This document shows positions 3,430 through 47,604 of a stretch of 64,000 bases of DNA, piece by piece (the first letter of the stretch is position 1; every line of letters begins with the position of its first letter). The notes beneath the pieces were generated by a model that did not search any database, was not told the DNA's origin, and saw only the letters and a program-made list of their open reading frames with translations. The translations under genes and the position numbers were made by a program. Location: the NCBI GenBank assembly GCA_035315345.1, contig DATFYA010000085.1, positions 2,288 through 66,287 on the forward strand, given 5' to 3'. This stretch comes from Candidatus Methylomirabilota bacterium (GTDB lineage Bacteria > Methylomirabilota > Methylomirabilia > Rokubacteriales > CSP1-6).

Positions 3430-3469
3430 GAAGAAGTCACGCTTGCAGCACCCAAAGGAGACAGAAGCG

Positions 3470-5224
3470 GTGAAGCTTTCAGGCGCTCAGATCGTGCTCG
3501 AGTGCATCAAGCGAGAGGGCGTGGATCTCATCTTCGGTCTGCCGGGCGGCGCGGTCCTGCCGATCTACGACGCCCTGTACGACTTCGAAGGACTGCGCCA
3601 CGTCCTGGTACGCCAGGAAGCCGCGGCCGGGCACGCCGCGGAAGGCTACGCGCGGACGTCGGGCAAGGTGGGAGTCTGTCTGGTCACCTCCGGACCGGCC
3701 GCGACGAACCTCGTGACCGCCCTGCAGGACGCGCTGATGGACTCGATTCCGATCGTGGCCTTCACCGGCCAGGTGCCGACGCATCTCATCGGCAACGACG
3801 CCTTCCAGGAGGCCGACAACGTCGGCATCACCCGCTCGGCCACCAAGCACAACTTCCTGGTGAAGGACGGCAAGGATCTGGCGCCGATCATCAAGGAGGC
3901 CTTCTATCTGGCCTCCACCGGCCGGCCGGGTCCGGTCCACGTGGATCTGCCCAAGGACATCCTGGTCAAGGAGTGGACCTTCGAGTACCCGGAGCGCGTG
4001 CACCTGCGCTCCTACAACCCGACCTACGAGGGCCATCCCGGGCAGATCAAGAAGGCGGCCCGCTCGATGGTGCGGGCGAAGCGCCCGGTGCTCTACGTGG
4101 GCGGCGGGGCCATCTCCTCGGACGCCGCGCCCGAGCTGCGCGAGCTGGCCGACCTGACCCAGATCCCGGTGACCCAGACCCTGATGGGGCTGGGAGCGTT
4201 CCCGATGGCGGACCCGCTGTCGCTCGACATGCTGGGCATGCACGGGACCTATTACGCGAACATGGCGGTGCACCACGCGGATTGCCTGGTCGCGGTGGCC
4301 GCGCGCTTCGACGACCGGGTGACCGGGAAGGTCGACGCGTTCTCGCCGAACGCGGAGATCATCCACATCGACATCGATCCCTCGTCGATCTCCAAGAACA
4401 TCAAGGTCGACATCCCGATCGTGGGCGACTGCAAGCGGGTCCTGCGCCGGCTGGTGGAGGCGGTGCGCGAGGAGATGAAGGACGGCGTGCCCGCCGCGGT
4501 GGCGGAGGGCCGGCGGCAGTGGGCGACCCAGATCGCGGAGTGGAAGCGCGACTTTCCCCTGCGCTACGACTGGGACGACGACGTCATCAAGCCCCAGTAC
4601 GTGATCCAGGAGCTGTCGAACCTCACCAACGGCGAGGCGCACGTGGTCACCGGGGTCGGCCAGCACCAGATGTGGGCCGCCCAGTACTACCGCTTCAAGC
4701 ACCCGCGGCGCTGGTGCACCTCGGGCGGGCTCGGCACCATGGGCTACGGGCTGCCCACCGCGATGGGCGTGCAGGCCGCGCATCCCGGCAAGCTGGTGGT
4801 GAACATCGACGGCGACGGCTCGTTCTCCATGAACAGCCAGGAGCTGGCCACCTGCTTCACCGAGAACCTGCCGGTCAAGACCGTCATCATCAACAACAGC
4901 GGGCACGGCATGGTGCGCCAGTGGCAGCGCATCATCTACAAGGAGCGCTTCTTCGCCATCGACCTGCCCGGCATTCCGGACTGGGTGAAGCTCGCGGAGG
5001 CCTACGGGTGCGTGGGTATCCGGGTGACCAAGCCGAGCGAGGTGGTGCCCGCGCTGGAGAAGATGCTGAGCACGCCGGCCCCGGTGGTGATGGACGTGTG
5101 CGTGGACAAGGACGAGTGCGTGTTCCCCATGGTGCCTGCCGGCGGCGCCAACAAGGACATGATCCTCGCCCTCCCCACTCGCGAAGTGAAGGAGAAAGCC
5201 GCCAAGTCCCAAACCGGATTTTGA
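3470..5224 (+). CDS. ilvB: acetolactate synthase (acetohydroxy-acid synthase) large subunit
   Basis: ThDP enzyme, …VKLSGAQIVLECIKREGVDLIFGLPGGAVLPIYDAL…GxGxMG… The track start at 3443 is a TTG. GTG at 3470 is preceded by AAAGGAG and is preferred. Confidence 0.9.
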   Translation: MKLSGAQIVLECIKREGVDLIFGLPGGAVLPIYDALYDFEGLRHVLVRQEAAAGHAAEGYARTSGKVGVCLVTSGPAATNLVTALQDALMDSIPIVAFTGQVPTHLIGNDAFQEADNVGITRSATKHNFLVKDGKDLAPIIKEAFYLASTGRPGPVHVDLPKDILVKEWTFEYPERVHLRSYNPTYEGHPGQIKKAARSMVRAKRPVLYVGGGAISSDAAPELRELADLTQIPVTQTLMGLGAFPMADPLSLDMLGMHGTYYANMAVHHADCLVAVAARFDDRVTGKVDAFSPNAEIIHIDIDPSSISKNIKVDIPIVGDCKRVLRRLVEAVREEMKDGVPAAVAEGRRQWATQIAEWKRDFPLRYDWDDDVIKPQYVIQELSNLTNGEAHVVTGVGQHQMWAAQYYRFKHPRRWCTSGGLGTMGYGLPTAMGVQAAHPGKLVVNIDGDGSFSMNSQELATCFTENLPVKTVIINNSGHGMVRQWQRIIYKERFFAIDLPGIPDWVKLAEAYGCVGIRVTKPSEVVPALEKMLSTPAPVVMDVCVDKDECVFPMVPAGGANKDMILALPTREVKEKAAKSQTGF

Positions 5225-5248
5225 GTCGGAGGAGGCCTCGACGACTCC

Positions 5249-5340
5249 GACGAGCGTCCGCCGCCTGGGGGAGTGCGGGGGCCATGTCGGGGCCCCCGCA
5301 TAAGAAAGAGGGGCGGGTCCGGACGTCCGCCCCCAGCGGG
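5249..5340 (-). repeat. REP/BIME-like hairpin repeat (inverted pair) in the ilvB-ilvH spacer; same family as the 45606-45775 copy
   Basis: The reverse complement of 5249-5305 is …CTTATGCGGGGGCCCCGACATGGCCCCCGCACTCCCCCAGGCGGCGGACGCTCGT…, about 90% identical to 45606-45664. A partial direct-orientation copy (CGGACGTCCGCCCCCAG) lies at 5316-5337. Confidence 0.6.
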
Positions 5341-5394
5341 CAGCCCGGCGCGAATGCAGATCGGGCGTGATCTGGCCGGAAAGGACGGGTTGAA

Positions 5395-5985
5395 GTGGCC
5401 GAAGCAGGGAACATCGAAAAGCATACGATTGCGGTTCTGGTCGAGAACAAGTTCGGGGTGCTCTCGCGCGTGGCGGGGCTGTTCTCGGCGCGCGGGTACA
5501 ACATCGAGAGCTTGTCGGTGGGGGAGACGCTGGATCCCTCGGTCTCCCGCATGACCCTCGTGGTGCGCGGCGACGCCTTCATCATCGAGCAGGTCATCAA
5601 GCAGCTGCACAAGCTGATCGACGTCATCAAGGTCACCGATCTGAGCGAGGAGAATCACGTCGAGCGCGAGATGCTCCTGCTGAAGGTCAACGCGGAGCCG
5701 GCCAACCGGGCGGAGATCCTCCGCCTGGGCGACATCTTCCGGGCCAAGGTGGTGGACGTGACCCCCACGACGTACACGCTGGAGGTCACCGGCGAGGAGT
5801 CGAAGATCGAGGGCATCATCGAGCTGCTGCGGCCTTTCGGTATCCAGGAGATCGTCCGGACCGGGAAGGTCGCCATCGCCCGCGGCCCCAAGACCCGCCT
5901 GCGCAAGATCGAGGAGCGGCTGGGCAAGTCGCGCGAATCGCGGCCGGCCAGCGACGATCCCCGAGTGGTCGGATTCGCGGACTGA
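5395..5985 (+). CDS. ilvH: acetolactate synthase small (regulatory) subunit
   Basis: ACT-domain protein, …[36 protein letters not shown]…, immediately downstream of ilvB. GTG start. Confidence 0.9.
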
Positions 5986-17818: not shown

Positions 17819-18142
17819 ATGAGTGTCCAGGTCTACATCCCGACGCCGTTCCGCCGCGCGACCAGGAACGCGGACCGGGTCTCCGTGGAGGCGCCCGACG
17901 TCAAGGGCCTGCTCGACGAGCTCGAGGACCAGTTCGGCGGGCTGAAGGGTCTGGTGCGCAACGAGCAGGGCGAGGTCCACCACCACGTCAACATCTACGT
18001 CAACAACGAGGCGATCGAGGCGCTCCAGGGACTCGACACCGCGCTAAAGGACGGCGACGAGGTATCGATCATTCCAGCCCTCGCGGGCGGCGGGCCAGCC
18101 CTCGCGGGCGGCGGGCCGGCCCTCGCGGTGGGACGGGGCTGA
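17819..18142 (+). CDS. MoaD/ThiS/CysO-family sulfur-carrier protein with repeated C-terminal extension
   Basis: Beta-grasp carrier, …VNIYVNNEAIEALQGLDTALKDGDEVSIIPALAGG…, followed by GPALAGGGPALAVGRG. AGGAG RBS 8 nt upstream. The 3' end carries a 21-bp tandem duplication. Confidence 0.65.
   Translation: MSVQVYIPTPFRRATRNADRVSVEAPDVKGLLDELEDQFGGLKGLVRNEQGEVHHHVNIYVNNEAIEALQGLDTALKDGDEVSIIPALAGGGPALAGGGPALAVGRG
18081..18139 (+). repeat. 21-bp tandem duplication (about 2.7 copies, GCCCTCGCGGGCGGCGGGCCA-like) forming the 3' end of the CysO-like gene
   Basis: AGCCCTCGCGGGCGGCGGGCC / AGCCCTCGCGGGCGGCGGGCC / GGCCCTCGCGGTGGGACGGGGCTGA read directly from the sequence. It encodes PALAGGG-PALAGGG-PALAVGRG. 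Confidence 0.8.
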
Positions 18143-43738: not shown

Positions 43739-44744
43739 GCTGCGGCGCGATCCGATCGTCGGCCGCTGGGTGATCATCTCCACCGAGCGCTCCCGTCGGC
43801 CTTCGGACTTTGCGCCGGCTCCGCGGCGACGGAAGGGGGGGCCCTGCGTGTTCTGCGGAGGCCAGGAGCACCGCACGCCCGACGAGGTGTGGGCGCTCCG
43901 CCCCGGGCGCGGGGAGGCCAACACGCCGGGCTGGCTGCTGCGCGTGGTCCCCAACAAGTTCCCCGCGCTGCGCATCGAGGGCGAGCTCGAGCCCTCTGCG
44001 GAGGGCATGTTCGACCGGATGAACGGGATCGGGGCCCACGAGGTGATCGTCGAGTCGCCCGACCACGACGCGGTCATCGAGCAGCTGCCGGTGCCGCACC
44101 TGGCCGAGGTGTTCCGGGCCTATCGCGACCGGATCAACGACCTGGCCAAGGACCCGCGGCTCGAGTACGTGATGGTGTTCAAGAACCACGGCGATCCCGC
44201 CGGGGCCTCACTGGAGCACACCCACTCCCAGCTCATCGCCACGCCGGTGGTCCCGCTGATGGTCGAGGAGGAGCTGGCCGGGGCCCTCCAGCACTTGAAG
44301 CTTCGGCAGCGGTGCATCTGGTGCGACATCATCCGCCAGGAGCGGCAGGCCCGGACGCGGATCGTATTCGAGCACGACGGCTTCGTGGCCCTCGCCCCCT
44401 TCGCCCCCCGCTTCCCGTTCGAGACCTGGGTGCTCCCGGCGGCCCACCGGTCCCGCTACGAGGAGACGCCGGCCGAGGCGCTCACCGGCCTGGCCACCGT
44501 GGTGGCCCGCGTGCTCGGCCGCATGCGGACGTTCCTGGATGACCCGCCGTACAACTTCATGCTCCACAGCGCGCCCCTCCGCCGGCCGGCCCTCGACCAT
44601 TTCCACTGGCACCTCGAGATCATTCCGAAGCTCACGCGGGTCGCGGGTTTCGAATGGGGGACGGGCTTTTTCATCAACCCGACGCCGCCCGAGGAGGCAG
44701 CGAAATACCTGCGCGGAGAGACCCCGCAACCGCCCGTAAGTTGA
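43731..44744 (+). CDS. GalT-family (galactose-1-phosphate uridylyltransferase-like) HIT-superfamily nucleotidyltransferase
   Basis: Zn-binding …CVFCGGQEH… and His-x-His-x-Gln active site (…EHTHSQLIA…). 337 aa. Substrate not inferable. Confidence 0.7.
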   Translation: MPELRRDPIVGRWVIISTERSRRPSDFAPAPRRRKGGPCVFCGGQEHRTPDEVWALRPGRGEANTPGWLLRVVPNKFPALRIEGELEPSAEGMFDRMNGIGAHEVIVESPDHDAVIEQLPVPHLAEVFRAYRDRINDLAKDPRLEYVMVFKNHGDPAGASLEHTHSQLIATPVVPLMVEEELAGALQHLKLRQRCIWCDIIRQERQARTRIVFEHDGFVALAPFAPRFPFETWVLPAAHRSRYEETPAEALTGLATVVARVLGRMRTFLDDPPYNFMLHSAPLRRPALDHFHWHLEIIPKLTRVAGFEWGTGFFINPTPPEEAAKYLRGETPQPPVS

Positions 44745-44769
44745 CACTACGCAAGGCTTTTGTTACAGT
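44741..44769 (+). promoter_or_regulatory. putative promoter of the tRNA cluster (TTGACA-17 nt-TACAGT)
   Basis: TTGACA at 44741-44746 (overlapping the GalT-like stop) and TACAGT at 44764-44769, about 30 nt before tRNA-Gly. Confidence 0.45.
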
Positions 44770-44799
44770 CCGAAGCTGGTTCTGTGACAGGTGAAATTC

Positions 44800-44874
44800 G
44801 CGGGAATAGCTCAGTGGTAGAGCACAACCTTGCCAAGGTTGGGGTCGCGGGTTCGAATCCCGTTTCCCGCTCCA
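44800..44874 (+). tRNA. tRNA-Gly (anticodon GCC)
   Basis: Cloverleaf by eye. Acceptor GCGGGAA/TTCCCGC, anticodon loop TTGCCAA, T-loop GGTTCGAATCC, 3' CCA encoded. Confidence 0.9.
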
Positions 44875-44885
44875 TATGACTGAAG

Positions 44886-44961
44886 GGCGGCGTAGCCAAG
44901 TGGCTAAGGCGGAGGTCTGCAAAACCTCTATTCAGCGGTTCGAATCCGCTCGCCGCCTCCA
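44886..44961 (+). tRNA. tRNA-Cys (anticodon GCA)
   Basis: Acceptor GGCGGCG/CGCCGCC, anticodon loop CTGCAAA, T-loop GGTTCGAATCC, CCA encoded. Confidence 0.9.
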
Positions 44962-44990
44962 ACTTGGCAGGCGGTCCAGCGATCGGATTG

Positions 44991-45078
44991 CCGGGGTGGC
45001 GGAACTGGGAGACGCGGCGGACTTAAAATCCGTTGGTCCGCAAGGGCCGTGGGGGTTCGATTCCCTCCCTCGGCACCA
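44991..45078 (+). tRNA. tRNA-Leu (anticodon UAA), class II with long variable arm
   Basis: Acceptor GCCGGGG/CCTCGGC (one G-U), anticodon loop CTTAAAA, long variable stem-loop, T-loop GGTTCGATTCC, CCA encoded. Confidence 0.85.
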
Positions 45079-45113
45079 GAGGTGAAGCGCACTCAAGCAC
45101 GGAGGCAAACAAG

Positions 45114-45569
45114 GTGGAGACCTTGAAGGTAGTCCGGAAGACCTTCACGATGTTGAGCGAGAAACGGACACAGGTCCTGGACATCACCAAGCAGATCCGG
45201 GACATCGTGCTGGGCGCCGACATCAAGGAGGGCATCATTCTGGTCAACTCCCTCCACACCACCTGCGCCCTGTTCGTGAACGAGTTCCAGGGAGCCCTCG
45301 TCGAGGACCTCAAGACGATGATGGATCGCCTGGTCGCCGACGATGCCGGCTACAAGCACGACGACCCGCGCTTCTCGGACTGCGAGCGGGGCAACGCGTC
45401 CTCCCACCTCCGTGCCGCCCTGCTGGGGAGAAGCGTGGCGGTCGGCATCAGCGGTGGCGAGCTGTCGCTCGGCCGCTTCCAGTCCATCCTCTTCGCCGAG
45501 CTCGACGGGCCGCGGACCCGGAGCATCGACATCCAGATCATGGGCGTCGGGCCAGCGGGGGGGAACTGA
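45114..45569 (+). CDS. YjbQ-family (UPF0047) secondary thiamin-phosphate synthase-like protein
   Basis: …KTFTMLSEKRTQVLDITKQIRDIV…SHLRAALLGRSVAVGISGGELSLGRFQSI… matches the YjbQ fold. GTG start with GGAGG RBS chosen; ATG 45150 is the alternative. Confidence 0.7.
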   Translation: METLKVVRKTFTMLSEKRTQVLDITKQIRDIVLGADIKEGIILVNSLHTTCALFVNEFQGALVEDLKTMMDRLVADDAGYKHDDPRFSDCERGNASSHLRAALLGRSVAVGISGGELSLGRFQSILFAELDGPRTRSIDIQIMGVGPAGGN

Positions 45570-45605
45570 GGGCTTCTGCAGTCAGTCGTTTGAATCTTTA
45601 GGCTC

Positions 45606-45775
45606 TATCTTATGCGGGGGCCCGGAAATGGCCCCCGCACTCCCCCAGTCGGCGGACGTTCGTAGGCCCCCGCACTCCCCCAGTCCGCGGACGTTCGTAG
45701 GCCCCCGCACTCCCCCAGTCCGCGGACGTTCGTAGGTCCCAGCAATCCCCCGGGGCGCGGACTCTTCGCGGCGGT
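45606..45775 (+). repeat. REP-like hairpin (TGCGGGGGCC-7 nt-GGCCCCCGCA) followed by a 35-bp tandem array (3 perfect copies plus 1 degenerate copy)
   Basis: Unit GCCCCCGCACTCCCCCAGTC(G/C)GCGGACGTTCGTAG at 45631-45665, 45666-45700, 45701-45735. Degenerate fourth copy to about 45774. Same family as 5249-5340. Confidence 0.8.
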
Positions 45776-45882
45776 TTCGGTCTGCGGCTTCGGTTTGTGG
45801 TTTTGGCTCCTTCTCCCCGAGCGTCTTCCGCTGGTGCTCCGGCCGGTGGGGGCCGGTTGGGCGTGATAGACTGACGCGCAGT

Positions 45883-47604
45883 ATGTCCTGGAAGCTCAAG
45901 AAGAAGGCCCAGACGCTCGTCGCCTCCGAAGAGGGTGTGATCCACAAGGAATGGGGCGGTCGTGTGTCGATCGCGCTGGTGTACCCGAATACCTATGCGG
46001 TCGGGATGTCCAACCTCGGCTTCCAGACCATCTACGACCATCTGAACGCGCTGCCGCAGGTGGTGTGCGAGCGGGTCTTCTTTCCGGATCCCGAGGATCT
46101 GGACGAGCACGTCCGGACCGGGACGCCCCCGTTCTCGCTGGAGTCGCAGCGTCCCTTGACCGACTTCGACCTCGTGGGCTTCTCCATCACCTACGAGGGT
46201 GACTACATCAACACGGTGCGTCTGCTCCGCATGGCCGGCCTGCCGGTGCGGGCGGCGGACCGGGGGCCCGGCGATCCGGTGGTGATGATGGGCGGGGTCT
46301 GTGCTTTCTCGAACCCGGAGCCCATGGCCGCCTTCATGGACTTCGTGGTGGTCGGGGAGGGGGAGGAGGTCGTCCGCGAGATCGTCGACGCCTGGAGCGC
46401 GAGCGGAGCCGACGGCGACCGCGACGGGCAACGGAGCCGCTTCATCGAGCGCGTGAAGCCGCTGGTCGGAGTGTACGTGCCCGACGCCTACCGGGTCGAC
46501 TACGGTGCGGAGGACCTGATCGCGTCGGTCGAGGCGGTCGAAGCGGGTGTCCCGGCGCTGGTGCTCAAGCGCCGCCTGAAGGACGTCAATCGCTTCGAGA
46601 CCCGCTCGGCGCTCAAGACGCCGCGGGCCGAGTACGGCCACATGGAATTGCTGGAGGTCGGCAAGGGATGCGGCCGTGGCTGCCGGTTCTGCCTCGAGGG
46701 CCAGGTGTACCGGCCGGTGAGGCACCGGAGCCTCGACGCCCTCCGCGAGTCGGTGGCGCGCATCGCGAAGGAGTCCAAGCGCATCGGGCTGGTGGGGGCC
46801 TGCGTCTCCGACTACCCGTGGATCGGGGAGCTGATGAAAGTGCTGGAGGAGAACGGGGTGGAGGTGTCGATCTCCTCGCTCCGCGCCGACAGCCTCACCG
46901 AGGACCTGGTCGCCTCGCTGCAGCGCGGCGGTCACCGGACCCTCACGATGGCGCCGGAGGCGGGCACCGAGCGGCTGCGCGCGGTGGTGCGCAAGGCGAT
47001 CACCGACCAGCAGCTCTACGAGGCCTGCGAGCTGCTGCGGCGGTACGGGATCCCGAATCTCAAGTGCTACTTCATGATCGGGCTCCCCACCGAGACACGC
47101 GAGGACGTGGAGGCGATCCCGGACCTCGCGGCCCGTCTGCTGGAGCGCCTGCAAGTCCTGGGGCCGGACGGCCATCCCTTCGGCAAGCTGACCCTGTCGG
47201 TCTCGTCGTTCGTGCCCAAGCCGTGGACGCCGTTCCAGTGGGCGCCGTTCGACGATCCGCGCGCCCTCGAGGACAAGCTCGACCTGATCAAGCGCGCGGC
47301 GCGCCGGCTCGACACGATCCGGGTGGTGCACGAGAACCCGCGGGAGGCCGCGCTGCAGGCCCTGCTGGCGCGCGGCGATCGGCGGGTGGCCGACTTCATC
47401 GAGCTGGCCGCGGGCCTCGACGGTGACTGGCGGCGCGCGCTCCGGGAATGGGACCGCGACCCGAGCGCGTACACCCGGCGCCCGCGCGCGACGACCGAGA
47501 TCCTGCCGTGGGATCACTTCGACGTCGGGGTCAAGAAGGCCGGCCTCCTGCGCGAGTGGGAGCGAGCCTGTCAGACCGCCGCGCCGGCGGCGGCCTCGGG
47601 ATAG
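45883..47604 (+). CDS. radical SAM protein with N-terminal B12-binding-like domain (TIGR03960-like, uncharacterised family)
   Basis: N-terminal …[28 protein letters not shown]… and radical-SAM cluster CGRGCRFC (Cx3Cx2C variant region …[14 protein letters not shown]…). 573 aa. Confidence 0.65.

Follow-up and report, generated by a model that had tools for sequence, protein, structure and literature searches.

The closest described systems to the element analysed here are the repetitive extragenic palindromes (REPs). The GTAG-tagged REPs of Enterobacteria and Pseudomonas are short GC-rich palindromes that are extragenic and present in many copies (PMC2817692, PMC3733652), and our element is like them in these respects. 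Head-to-head dimers predominate among the CGTC-tagged REPs, and other families are known to have REPs within genes, in many cases genes for replication and repair (PMC3733652). We analysed a hairpin and a tandem array of 35-nt units at positions 45606-45775 of a 64-kb stretch of DNA (the window) from a Candidatus Methylomirabilota bacterium (contig DATFYA010000085.1). The Rokubacteria and Methylomirabilota abound in soil, have large genomes and are uncultured. The reading that we favour, and regard as probable without being sure of it, is that the hairpin and the array represent a locally amplified copy of a family of non-autonomous, mobile, REP-like palindromic DNA elements in this lineage. 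The family is apparently undescribed and REP-like with an anatomy of its own, and nothing shows an extraordinary function. The core sequences are absent from the searchable literature, where no report linking Rokubacteria with REPs was found either, and no repeat family described for Rokubacteria/Methylomirabilota was found in the literature searched or in Rfam.

The hairpin pattern has two matches in the window, compared with 0.05 expected from shuffles, and the RNA fold of the hairpin has a free energy of -22.1 kcal/mol (z = -3.2). Tandem Repeats Finder reports a period of 35 at 45630-45762 with 3.8 copies, 92% matches and a score of 217, by far the top-scoring tandem array of the window. 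A first-pass annotation made from the letters alone had described a perfect 10-bp stem with a CGGAAAT loop, followed by three perfect and one degenerate unit, with tRNA-Gly/Cys/Leu and yjbQ upstream and a radical-SAM operon downstream; we find the hairpin at 45613-45639, the units at 45631-45771 and the genes where it had placed them. The parts of this copy are as follows.

45578-45589, plus strand: degenerate left-hand copy of the GCGGACAnnCGT motif (GCAGTCAGTCGT, 2 mismatches), the approximate left edge of element copy 1; the profile match begins at 45579
45589-45612, plus strand: left module of the 'b' type (TTTGAATCTTTAGGCTCTATCTTA), pyrimidine-rich and variable between subfamilies
45613-45639, plus strand: core hairpin of 27 nt, 10-bp perfect stem TGCGGGGGCC/GGCCCCCGCA and 7-nt loop CGGAAAT
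45640-45648, plus strand: conserved 3' tail CTCCCCCAG, of which the first 7 nt belong to the constant core
45652-45663, plus strand: right-hand motif GCGGACGTTCGT (family consensus GCGGACAnnCGT), found again in each unit at 45687-45698 and 45722-45733
45631-45665, 45666-45700 and 45701-45735, plus strand: three perfect head-to-tail 35-nt half-units
45736-45771, plus strand: decayed fourth unit GTCCCAGCAATCCCCCGGGGCGCGGACTCTTCGCGG

Each half-unit is composed of the 3' arm, the tail and the GCGGAC motif, and the first 9 nt of the first unit are part of the hairpin's own 3' arm, so the two overlap. The fourth unit is less decayed in other assemblies, where it has the allele GCCCTCGCACTCCTCCGGGGCGCGGAGTCTTCGCGG.

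The repeat family and its arrays

Copies of the element were collected by two pattern scans. The genome scan, in which each species was represented by one genome and the 18-mer GCCCCCGCACTCCCCCAG was the pattern, gave at least 120 loci, of which about 110 are true copies with the full hairpin. The metagenome scan, with the hairpin alone as its pattern and contigs that carry no taxonomy, gave at least 120 loci with 138 hairpins. Overall, the family comprises at least 261 loci and at least 276 perfect hairpins within 1.8 Mb of fetched DNA at 70.6% G+C. The proposal that the motif forms a dispersed family, made from the two loci of the window, is thus borne out by hundreds of copies in the two scans. 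A family profile built from about 130 copies matches the window at 45579-45663 (E = 2e-21) and 5246-5334 (E = 2e-18), with no third match within its 64 kb.

Among the matches listed, the copies of the genome scan come from about 23 assemblies, which are Rokubacteria-like metagenome-assembled genomes (MAGs) mostly named Methylomirabilota or Rokubacteria, and there are several matches per contig of 0.5-0.9 Mb, the window having two sites. The remainder are soil MAGs with different names, and the genes that flank the element there are 85-93% identical to genes of Rokubacteria MAGs. These oddly named MAGs belong to the SMAG series and include DATIWG 'Nitrosotalea' (loci L004, L076, L108 and L111 of our collection), DASQAL 'Acidoferrum', DATHSW 'Deferrimicrobiaceae', DATLFG 'Limnocylindria', DATJIR 'Verrucomicrobiia' and DATMMH 'Dormiibacterota'. 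They hold many copies of the element, on contigs of up to 200 kb. It looks as if either the record names are wrong or the bins are contaminated. The family is a ready lineage marker, and it has exposed several public MAGs whose record names disagree with their sequence.

The element is about 85-95 nt long and contains a 34-nt constant core, which reads T-GCGGGGGCC, the loop C-N-G-A-M-A-T, GGCCCCCGC-A and then CTCCCCC. Most positions of the 5' arm and the loop carry 1.7-2.0 bits, and loop positions 2 and 5 carry 0.6-0.7 bits. This conservation is not driven by ascertainment, since the pattern of the genome scan excluded the 5' arm and the loop and that of the metagenome scan excluded the tail. 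Over the 5' arm and loop, bases on which the genome scan did not select, any two copies are 91-94% identical. CTCCCCC directly follows the hairpin in about 95% of the 138 copies of the metagenome scan, and the next two bases vary (AG in 51%).

To the left of the core lies a pyrimidine-rich module of about 25-50 nt, of which there are at least four types:

type a: TTTACTTCTTCAGGCTCTTCAKC
type b: TTAAGTCTTTAAGCTCTATTGAA, for example at 45589-45612
type c: a second hairpin GGGGCGG...CCGCCCC and then CTCT, for example at 5310-5333
type d: ...CGGGAAGCTTCTCT

To the right, the GCGGACAnnCGT motif is found at +37/+38 from the hairpin in 111 of 131 copies and is often reiterated further downstream, while a weaker GCGGAC-type motif stands at -35/-36 in about 40 of the 131. 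A subfamily of the metagenomes (L194, L178, L185, L188, L198, L218, L229 and L249) has the same hairpin and CTCCCCC with another right module, ..TTTCGCGCCT.. and then another GC hairpin, which replaces the GCGGAC motif. A mini-ORF (MKSLKK*) read from the reverse strand of the most frequent left module was rejected, its start codon not being conserved and the 'b' module having an in-frame stop; a coding start at the ATG in the loop was rejected along with it. Viral contigs gave two chance matches, both without the hairpin. Archaeal matches near CoaBC genes were considered as a link to a 400-aa protein and rejected as chance matches beside a housekeeping gene.

The second copy in the window is complete and inverted. 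The first-pass annotation had noticed an inverted recurrence at 5249-5305, which is real and extends to a whole element:

5246-5334, minus strand: complete second copy of the 'c' type, between ilvB (3443-5224) and ilvN (5395-5985)
5250-5261, minus strand: GCGGAC motif, reverse complement
5265-5273, minus strand: tail, reading CTGGGGGAG on the plus strand
5274-5300, minus strand: hairpin
5310-5333, minus strand: extra 7-bp-stem hairpin GGGGCGG-GTCCGGACGT-CCGCCCC in the left module

The 35-nt unit matches this copy at 5248-5282 on the minus strand. The copy lies inside the ilvBNC operon and is also present in the ortholog L089. In L134, L135 and L137, which belong to the same population, the ilvB-ilvN element (5246-5343 in the window) is doubled as a whole 97-nt unit. 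The ilvB-ilvN hairpin is one base short in L136 and L138, which are more distant relatives.

About one fifth of the sites have direct tandems, either of whole elements (period 71-97 nt) or of half-units (period 35-54 nt). The half-unit type, in which one hairpin is followed by 1-4 half-units, was seen at about a dozen loci besides the window. A half-unit begins where the loop meets the 3' arm (...TG, then GCCCCCGCA) and ends at a variable distance past the GCGGAC motif. Half-units lie 3' of the hairpin in 40 cases versus 4, and the 4 are decayed hairpins or stand at a contig edge. The units of the window abut without spacers and are identical throughout, and the 'spacers' in the arrays of other loci are identical to one another; we therefore reject a CRISPR (clustered regularly interspaced short palindromic repeats) array, which has unique spacers, as the first-pass annotation had already done.

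The array of the window is a genuine copy-number polymorphism and not an assembly artefact, because the number of perfect units is 1, 2 or 3 among independent assemblies that share an identical radical-SAM protein. The exact radical-SAM protein of the window is encoded on 16 contigs from different samples. Its spacer to yjbQ has one perfect unit in L124, L128, L129 and L132, two in L125 and L126, and three in L127 and the window, and these alleles differ in steps of 35 nt. A collapse of the tandem copy number to one throughout, which the first-pass annotation had wished to see checked, is contradicted by these assemblies. Expansion and contraction of the array through slippage or unequal recombination is presumably the simplest cause. 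The repeat breaks assemblies, as three metagenome contigs (L130, L131 and L133) stop within the 35-nt array. The stretch from the yjbQ stop codon to the hairpin has two haplotypes beside identical radical-SAM proteins (L125/L129 versus the window), with TGA versus TAG as the stop codon and one of the two 51 nt longer. The arrays can serve as strain-level variable-number markers, and the family explains contig breaks and spurious ORF calls in Rokubacteria assemblies.

Placement, copies inside genes and turnover

We classified the sites by a gene call based on the G+C content at third codon positions (GC3), which gave 80 classifiable copies. Of these, 72 lie between co-directional, 7 between convergent and 1 between divergent genes, compared with 72%, 13% and 14.5% of the background spacers, respectively; the depletion between divergent genes has p ~1e-4. 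When orthologous sites are collapsed to independent groups, the numbers are 37, 4 and 1. The copies typically start 10-40 nt past the stop codon of the upstream gene. Relative to the flanking genes 47 copies are antisense and 25 sense (65% versus 35%, p = 0.013), and relative to the local GC skew the C-rich strand is used 108 versus 71 times (p = 0.006). These preferences are biases and not rules. The two copies of the window are opposite in orientation on one replichore, as the GC skew is positive over 1-56 kb, which spans both. The neighbours are housekeeping genes, e.g. Liv-type ATP-binding cassette (ABC) transporters, mutS/mutL, coaBC, electron-transfer flavoprotein (ETF)/acyl-CoA dehydrogenase and ilvBN. 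The genes between same-orientation copies 1 kb apart (L057 and L103) were considered as transposases and rejected, since they encode LigB and ETF.

About 10% of the copies, neither window copy among them, lie in frame within long ORFs whose GC3 pattern is that of coding DNA to either side of the insert. MutL carries the element in the linker that joins its DNA_mis_repair and MutL_C domains. The sense orientation is found in L015 (3244-5043), L061 (5297-7114), L065 and L088, where the protein reads ...SIESGGPEMAPALPQSAD..., and the antisense orientation in L056 (2665-4467) and L090, where it reads ...ADWGSAGAISGPPQM..., and the rest of MutL is 86-89% identical between these species. Further copies lie between the 5'-3' exonuclease and polymerase domains of PolA (L028, 1-1998, minus strand), in an ABC transporter, where the copy occupies the linker from the membrane domain to the ATPase domain (L110, 2602-4578, plus strand; its orthologs L046 and L105 have it antisense), and in a major facilitator superfamily (MFS) transporter, within the central loop (L024, 45-1604, minus strand). 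By direct reading, the core has zero stop codons in all six frames. The peptide GSAGA(I/M)SGPP..., which had been called spurious, is so at the locus of the window, but the same frame is part of a real MutL in related genomes. With the in-frame copies of MutL and PolA, which sister species have in either orientation, nature provides a clear case of proteins that tolerate the insertion of a mobile palindrome.

The sites differ between species both in occupancy and in orientation. One orthologous spacer is filled in L007 and L051 and empty in L059, and another is filled in L005, L027, L072 and L054 and empty in L021. The empty site L052 already has a GCGGAC motif, so this motif could belong either to the element or to its target. 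At 14 of the 25 sites common to at least two species, the element is found in opposite orientations. The yjbQ-radical-SAM spacer is one of those that flip: the window, L113 and L050 have the hairpin and then the tail towards the radical-SAM gene, while L022 has the inverted element with two units of period 36. The 'b'-type left module is present in the same spacer of L113 and L050 and, inverted, of L022. At the ureA-ureB junction, L083 and L120 carry the element inverted relative to each other, and the difference between their junctions points to independent insertions. The insertion in L083 (around 2300-2480) is flanked by a 9-bp direct repeat, TGATTCCCG, which restores the stop codon of the upstream gene and the start codon of the downstream one. 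Between orthologous copies in the same orientation the 5' arm and loop are 94% identical, compared with about 35% for the surrounding spacer DNA, which argues that the core is either constrained or continually renewed.

The surroundings of the array consist of tRNA-Gly, -Cys and -Leu at 44800-45078 and the UPF0047/YjbQ gene ending at 45569 on one side, and a B12-type radical-SAM gene starting at 45883 on the other, followed by Rieske, MoaA-like and chlorite-dismutase-like genes. A promoter-like site at 44741-44769 (TTGACA, a 17-nt spacer and TACAGT with TG before it) stands directly upstream of the tRNA cluster. An extended -10-like box, TGATAGACT, lies at 45864-45872, about 10 nt 5' of the radical-SAM start codon, and is kept as GTGGTAGACT in the orthologs L113, L050 and L022; judging from this conserved box, the radical-SAM operon probably has its own promoter just past the array. 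An unrelated clean tandem repeat is found at 18074-18128 (period 21, 2.6 copies, 97% matches, unit CCAGCCCTCGCGGGCGGCGGG).

A known Rfam RNA family was rejected for the hairpin, as only the three tRNAs of the window pass the gathering thresholds. At E values up to 10, the best match in the array region is Yfr1 at 45614-45660, with 18 bits against a threshold of 38 (E = 0.46). Yfr1 is a cyanobacterial small RNA that consists of a hairpin followed by a C-rich single strand, and the likeness is probably a resemblance of form only.

Possible origins of the hairpin and the array

Our preferred reading of a mobile REP-like family would work as follows. A trans-acting enzyme would recognise the core in its DNA form, probably once a single-strand hairpin has been extruded; that DNA and not RNA is recognised is suggested because the asymmetric loop and the tail are conserved though the copies are transcribed in both senses. 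A tyrosine transposase of the HUH type could fit, by analogy with the REPs and their REP-associated tyrosine transposases (RAYTs) and with the insertion sequences IS200/IS605 (PMC2817692, PMC3479197), and none was found in the flanks searched. The enzyme would copy or move the element into permissive places, i.e. short spacers just downstream of genes, spacers within operons and flexible linkers of proteins, and the element would survive in such places only. After the insertion, the 3'-arm/tail segment or the whole element would expand and contract in tandem, presumably by slippage or unequal recombination, which would give rise to the copy-number polymorphism at 45631-45771. Side effects on RNA are plausible, since a hairpin of -22 kcal/mol in either orientation could influence mRNA stability or read-through as the REPs of E. 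coli do, and the data do not need them.

Several observations weigh against this reading. The first-pass annotation had suggested that such elements are substrates of RAYTs, but no RAYT-like or Y1 gene was found in the approximately 1.8 Mb around some 270 copies using phmmer with the E. coli RayT, a profile of 120 homologues and a search for HUH/YxxNP motifs; this negative is weak, as the profile is enterobacterial and distant from this phylum, RAYTs are usually single-copy and the flanks were the DNA searched. The element has no terminal inverted repeats, and the GCGGAC motifs at its ends are direct and not inverted. Flanking direct repeats of at least 8 bp are not enriched (52% versus 48% in the control), and the ends of the element are not fixable from the pairs of filled and empty sites, whose spacers are too diverged. 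The strict 3' polarity of the half-units is not predicted by simple symmetric slippage. The flipped pairs at shared sites have a left-module similarity of 0.51 compared with 0.38 for random pairs, which hints at local inversion or re-insertion and not at ordinary transposition. Finally, a near-invariant core at old shared sites exceeds what a purely selfish element predicts, and calls for a function in the host or else for fast turnover or gene conversion. As for movement by a DDE enzyme, we rejected a miniature inverted-repeat transposable element on the grounds of the same lack of inverted ends and of enriched flanking repeats of at least 8 bp.

A different explanation is that the element is mainly an RNA signal of the host, a GC hairpin that shields the upstream mRNA from 3' exonucleases and/or attenuates read-through, with selection driving its spread. 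The copies indeed stand 10-40 nt past stop codons and are rare in divergent spacers, shared sites have a conserved core amid diverging spacers, and the stem, being a perfect palindrome, forms a stable RNA hairpin of -22 kcal/mol in either orientation. REP325 of E. coli, which is both a partial terminator and an mRNA stabiliser (bioRxiv 10.64898/2026.03.23.713779), speaks for the same explanation. However, we rejected an intrinsic terminator, the role first suggested for the hairpin: it is followed by CUCCCCC, or by AUAAGA or GAUGAAG on the other strand, and not by a U-tract, and the scan of 44700-46000 gave zero terminator-like sites. The RNA polymerase of mycobacteria, another high-GC lineage, requires a U-tract for intrinsic termination (PMC3993855). 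Termination would also be harmful inside the ilvB-ilvN operon and the mutL and polA frames, where copies are found. An RNA signal leaves the invariant asymmetric loop and CTCCCCC unexplained when the senses of transcription are split 35%/65%, and the presence/absence differences and the flips of orientation would still need a mechanism of mobility, so that we consider this explanation unlikely. We give even less credence to the core being a site for a lineage-specific DNA protein of the host (nucleoid-associated, topological or of recombination), with the GCGGACAnnCGT motifs as a second protein site. Such a role would account for a core that stays constant at old sites, and agrees with a stem, loop and tail that are invariant over about 23 assemblies among the matches listed, whatever the orientation, with a GCGGAC motif precisely at +37/+38 and often reiterated downstream, and with the moderate bias relative to GC skew (108 versus 71, p = 0.006). 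The bacterial interspersed mosaic elements (BIMEs) of E. coli bind integration host factor (IHF) and gyrase, which also counts for it. IHF recruitment is mentioned in PMC3479197. But no candidate protein was identified, the in-frame copies in genes and the strain-level variation of copy number look tolerated and not selected, and the arrival of copies at new sites is left unexplained.

More speculatively, the 34-nt core could be the substrate of a dedicated DNA-processing system, domesticated and lineage-wide, which acts in place and remodels spacers and protein linkers. Such a system, improbable in our view, is suggested because over half of the shared sites are flipped with related flanking modules, because the core is constant at old shared sites and because the half-unit arrays start at the loop/3'-arm junction and grow on the tail side; these features would be compatible with an enzyme that, in the manner of rolling-circle Rep/HUH proteins, nicks the loop or a site beside it, followed by local re-synthesis, re-insertion or inversion. 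A DNA uptake signal like that of Neisseria, whose DNA uptake sequences often form inverted pairs downstream of genes, would account for a 10-mer in inverted pairs 3' of genes that is conserved across species. It is nonetheless very improbable: solitary arms outside hairpins and half-units number 27 compared with about 45 expected by composition in 1.8 Mb, the density is as low as about one copy per tens of kb (two in the window), and the conserved unit is an asymmetric core of 34 nt and not a 10-12-mer. The idea that the array is peculiar to this locus or was created by the assembly, with a one-off hairpin, products of slippage and no family behind it, has virtually no probability given the hundreds of copies elsewhere, the arrays of 1-3 units in independent assemblies and the comparable arrays at other loci.

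Comparison with known palindromic elements

The family has the short stem-loop of 20-40 nt that marks REPs (27 nt, with a 10-bp stem and a 7-nt loop), many dispersed and mostly extragenic copies (at least 276 hairpins at at least 261 loci among the matches listed) and a co-directional or convergent placement 3' of ORFs. A GTAG (GTGG) or CGTC tag as in the REP tables (PMC2817692, PMC3733652) is absent, as the 5' flank reads ...TCAKC or TTGAA and the 3' flank CTCCCCC, or GGGGGAG on the other strand. The first-pass label of a REP/BIME-type family thus holds for the dispersed, REP-like placement, but not for the tag, nor for the inverted pairs, which we saw at only 2 of about 250 sites. These two inverted doublets are at L204 (8820-9010) and L181 (640-810). 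The former is a symmetric tail-to-tail pair of about 190 nt that resembles a REPIN, the REP doublet that forms a hairpin.

Like the GTAG-tagged REPs, the family occupies co-directional and convergent spacers, 3' of coding regions and within operons, is occasionally intragenic and is polymorphic between relatives. Unlike them, it has a larger core of 34 nt in an element of about 90 nt, modular flanks and rare inverted dimers, and no RAYT was found in the flanks searched. It is comparable to the CGTC-tagged REPs (PMC3733652) in its stem (10 bp versus 8-9 bp), in that neither has an identified dedicated transposase and in that repeat clusters are rare in both, but it has no CGTC beside the stem and a loop of 7 nt versus 4-5 nt. 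Compared with the dimers of the CGTC REPs, the Rokubacteria family consists mostly of singletons and direct tandems.

The local tandem amplification of REP-containing units with strain-variable copy number is a feature shared with BIME-2 arrays and REPINs. In BIMEs and REPINs the REPs are alternating or inverted, whereas the arrays of our family are direct repeats of the whole element or of its 3' half, on the tail side. The Rickettsia palindromic elements and other intragenic REPs (PMC3733652) likewise insert in frame at linkers and loops, including those of replication and repair proteins. The Rickettsia elements are another sequence family in another host phylum, and the same MutL linker with either orientation in sister species sets ours apart from them. 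The ends of IS200/IS605 and their miniature derivatives share with the family a subterminal hairpin that is likely recognised, the lack of inverted terminal repeats and the lack of an evident target duplication. Unlike IS200/IS605, the family has no associated tnpA/tnpB, mostly a single hairpin and an orientation that is not strictly tied to the replication strand.

What stands out in this comparison is the 34-nt constant core, the polarity of the half-unit arrays and their variation inside populations, the frequent differences in orientation at shared sites and the in-frame copies in MutL and PolA. The family extends the REP-like elements to another phylum, with neither a GTAG/CGTC tag, an inverted-dimer layout nor a visible RAYT, and thereby bears on how such elements move and are maintained.

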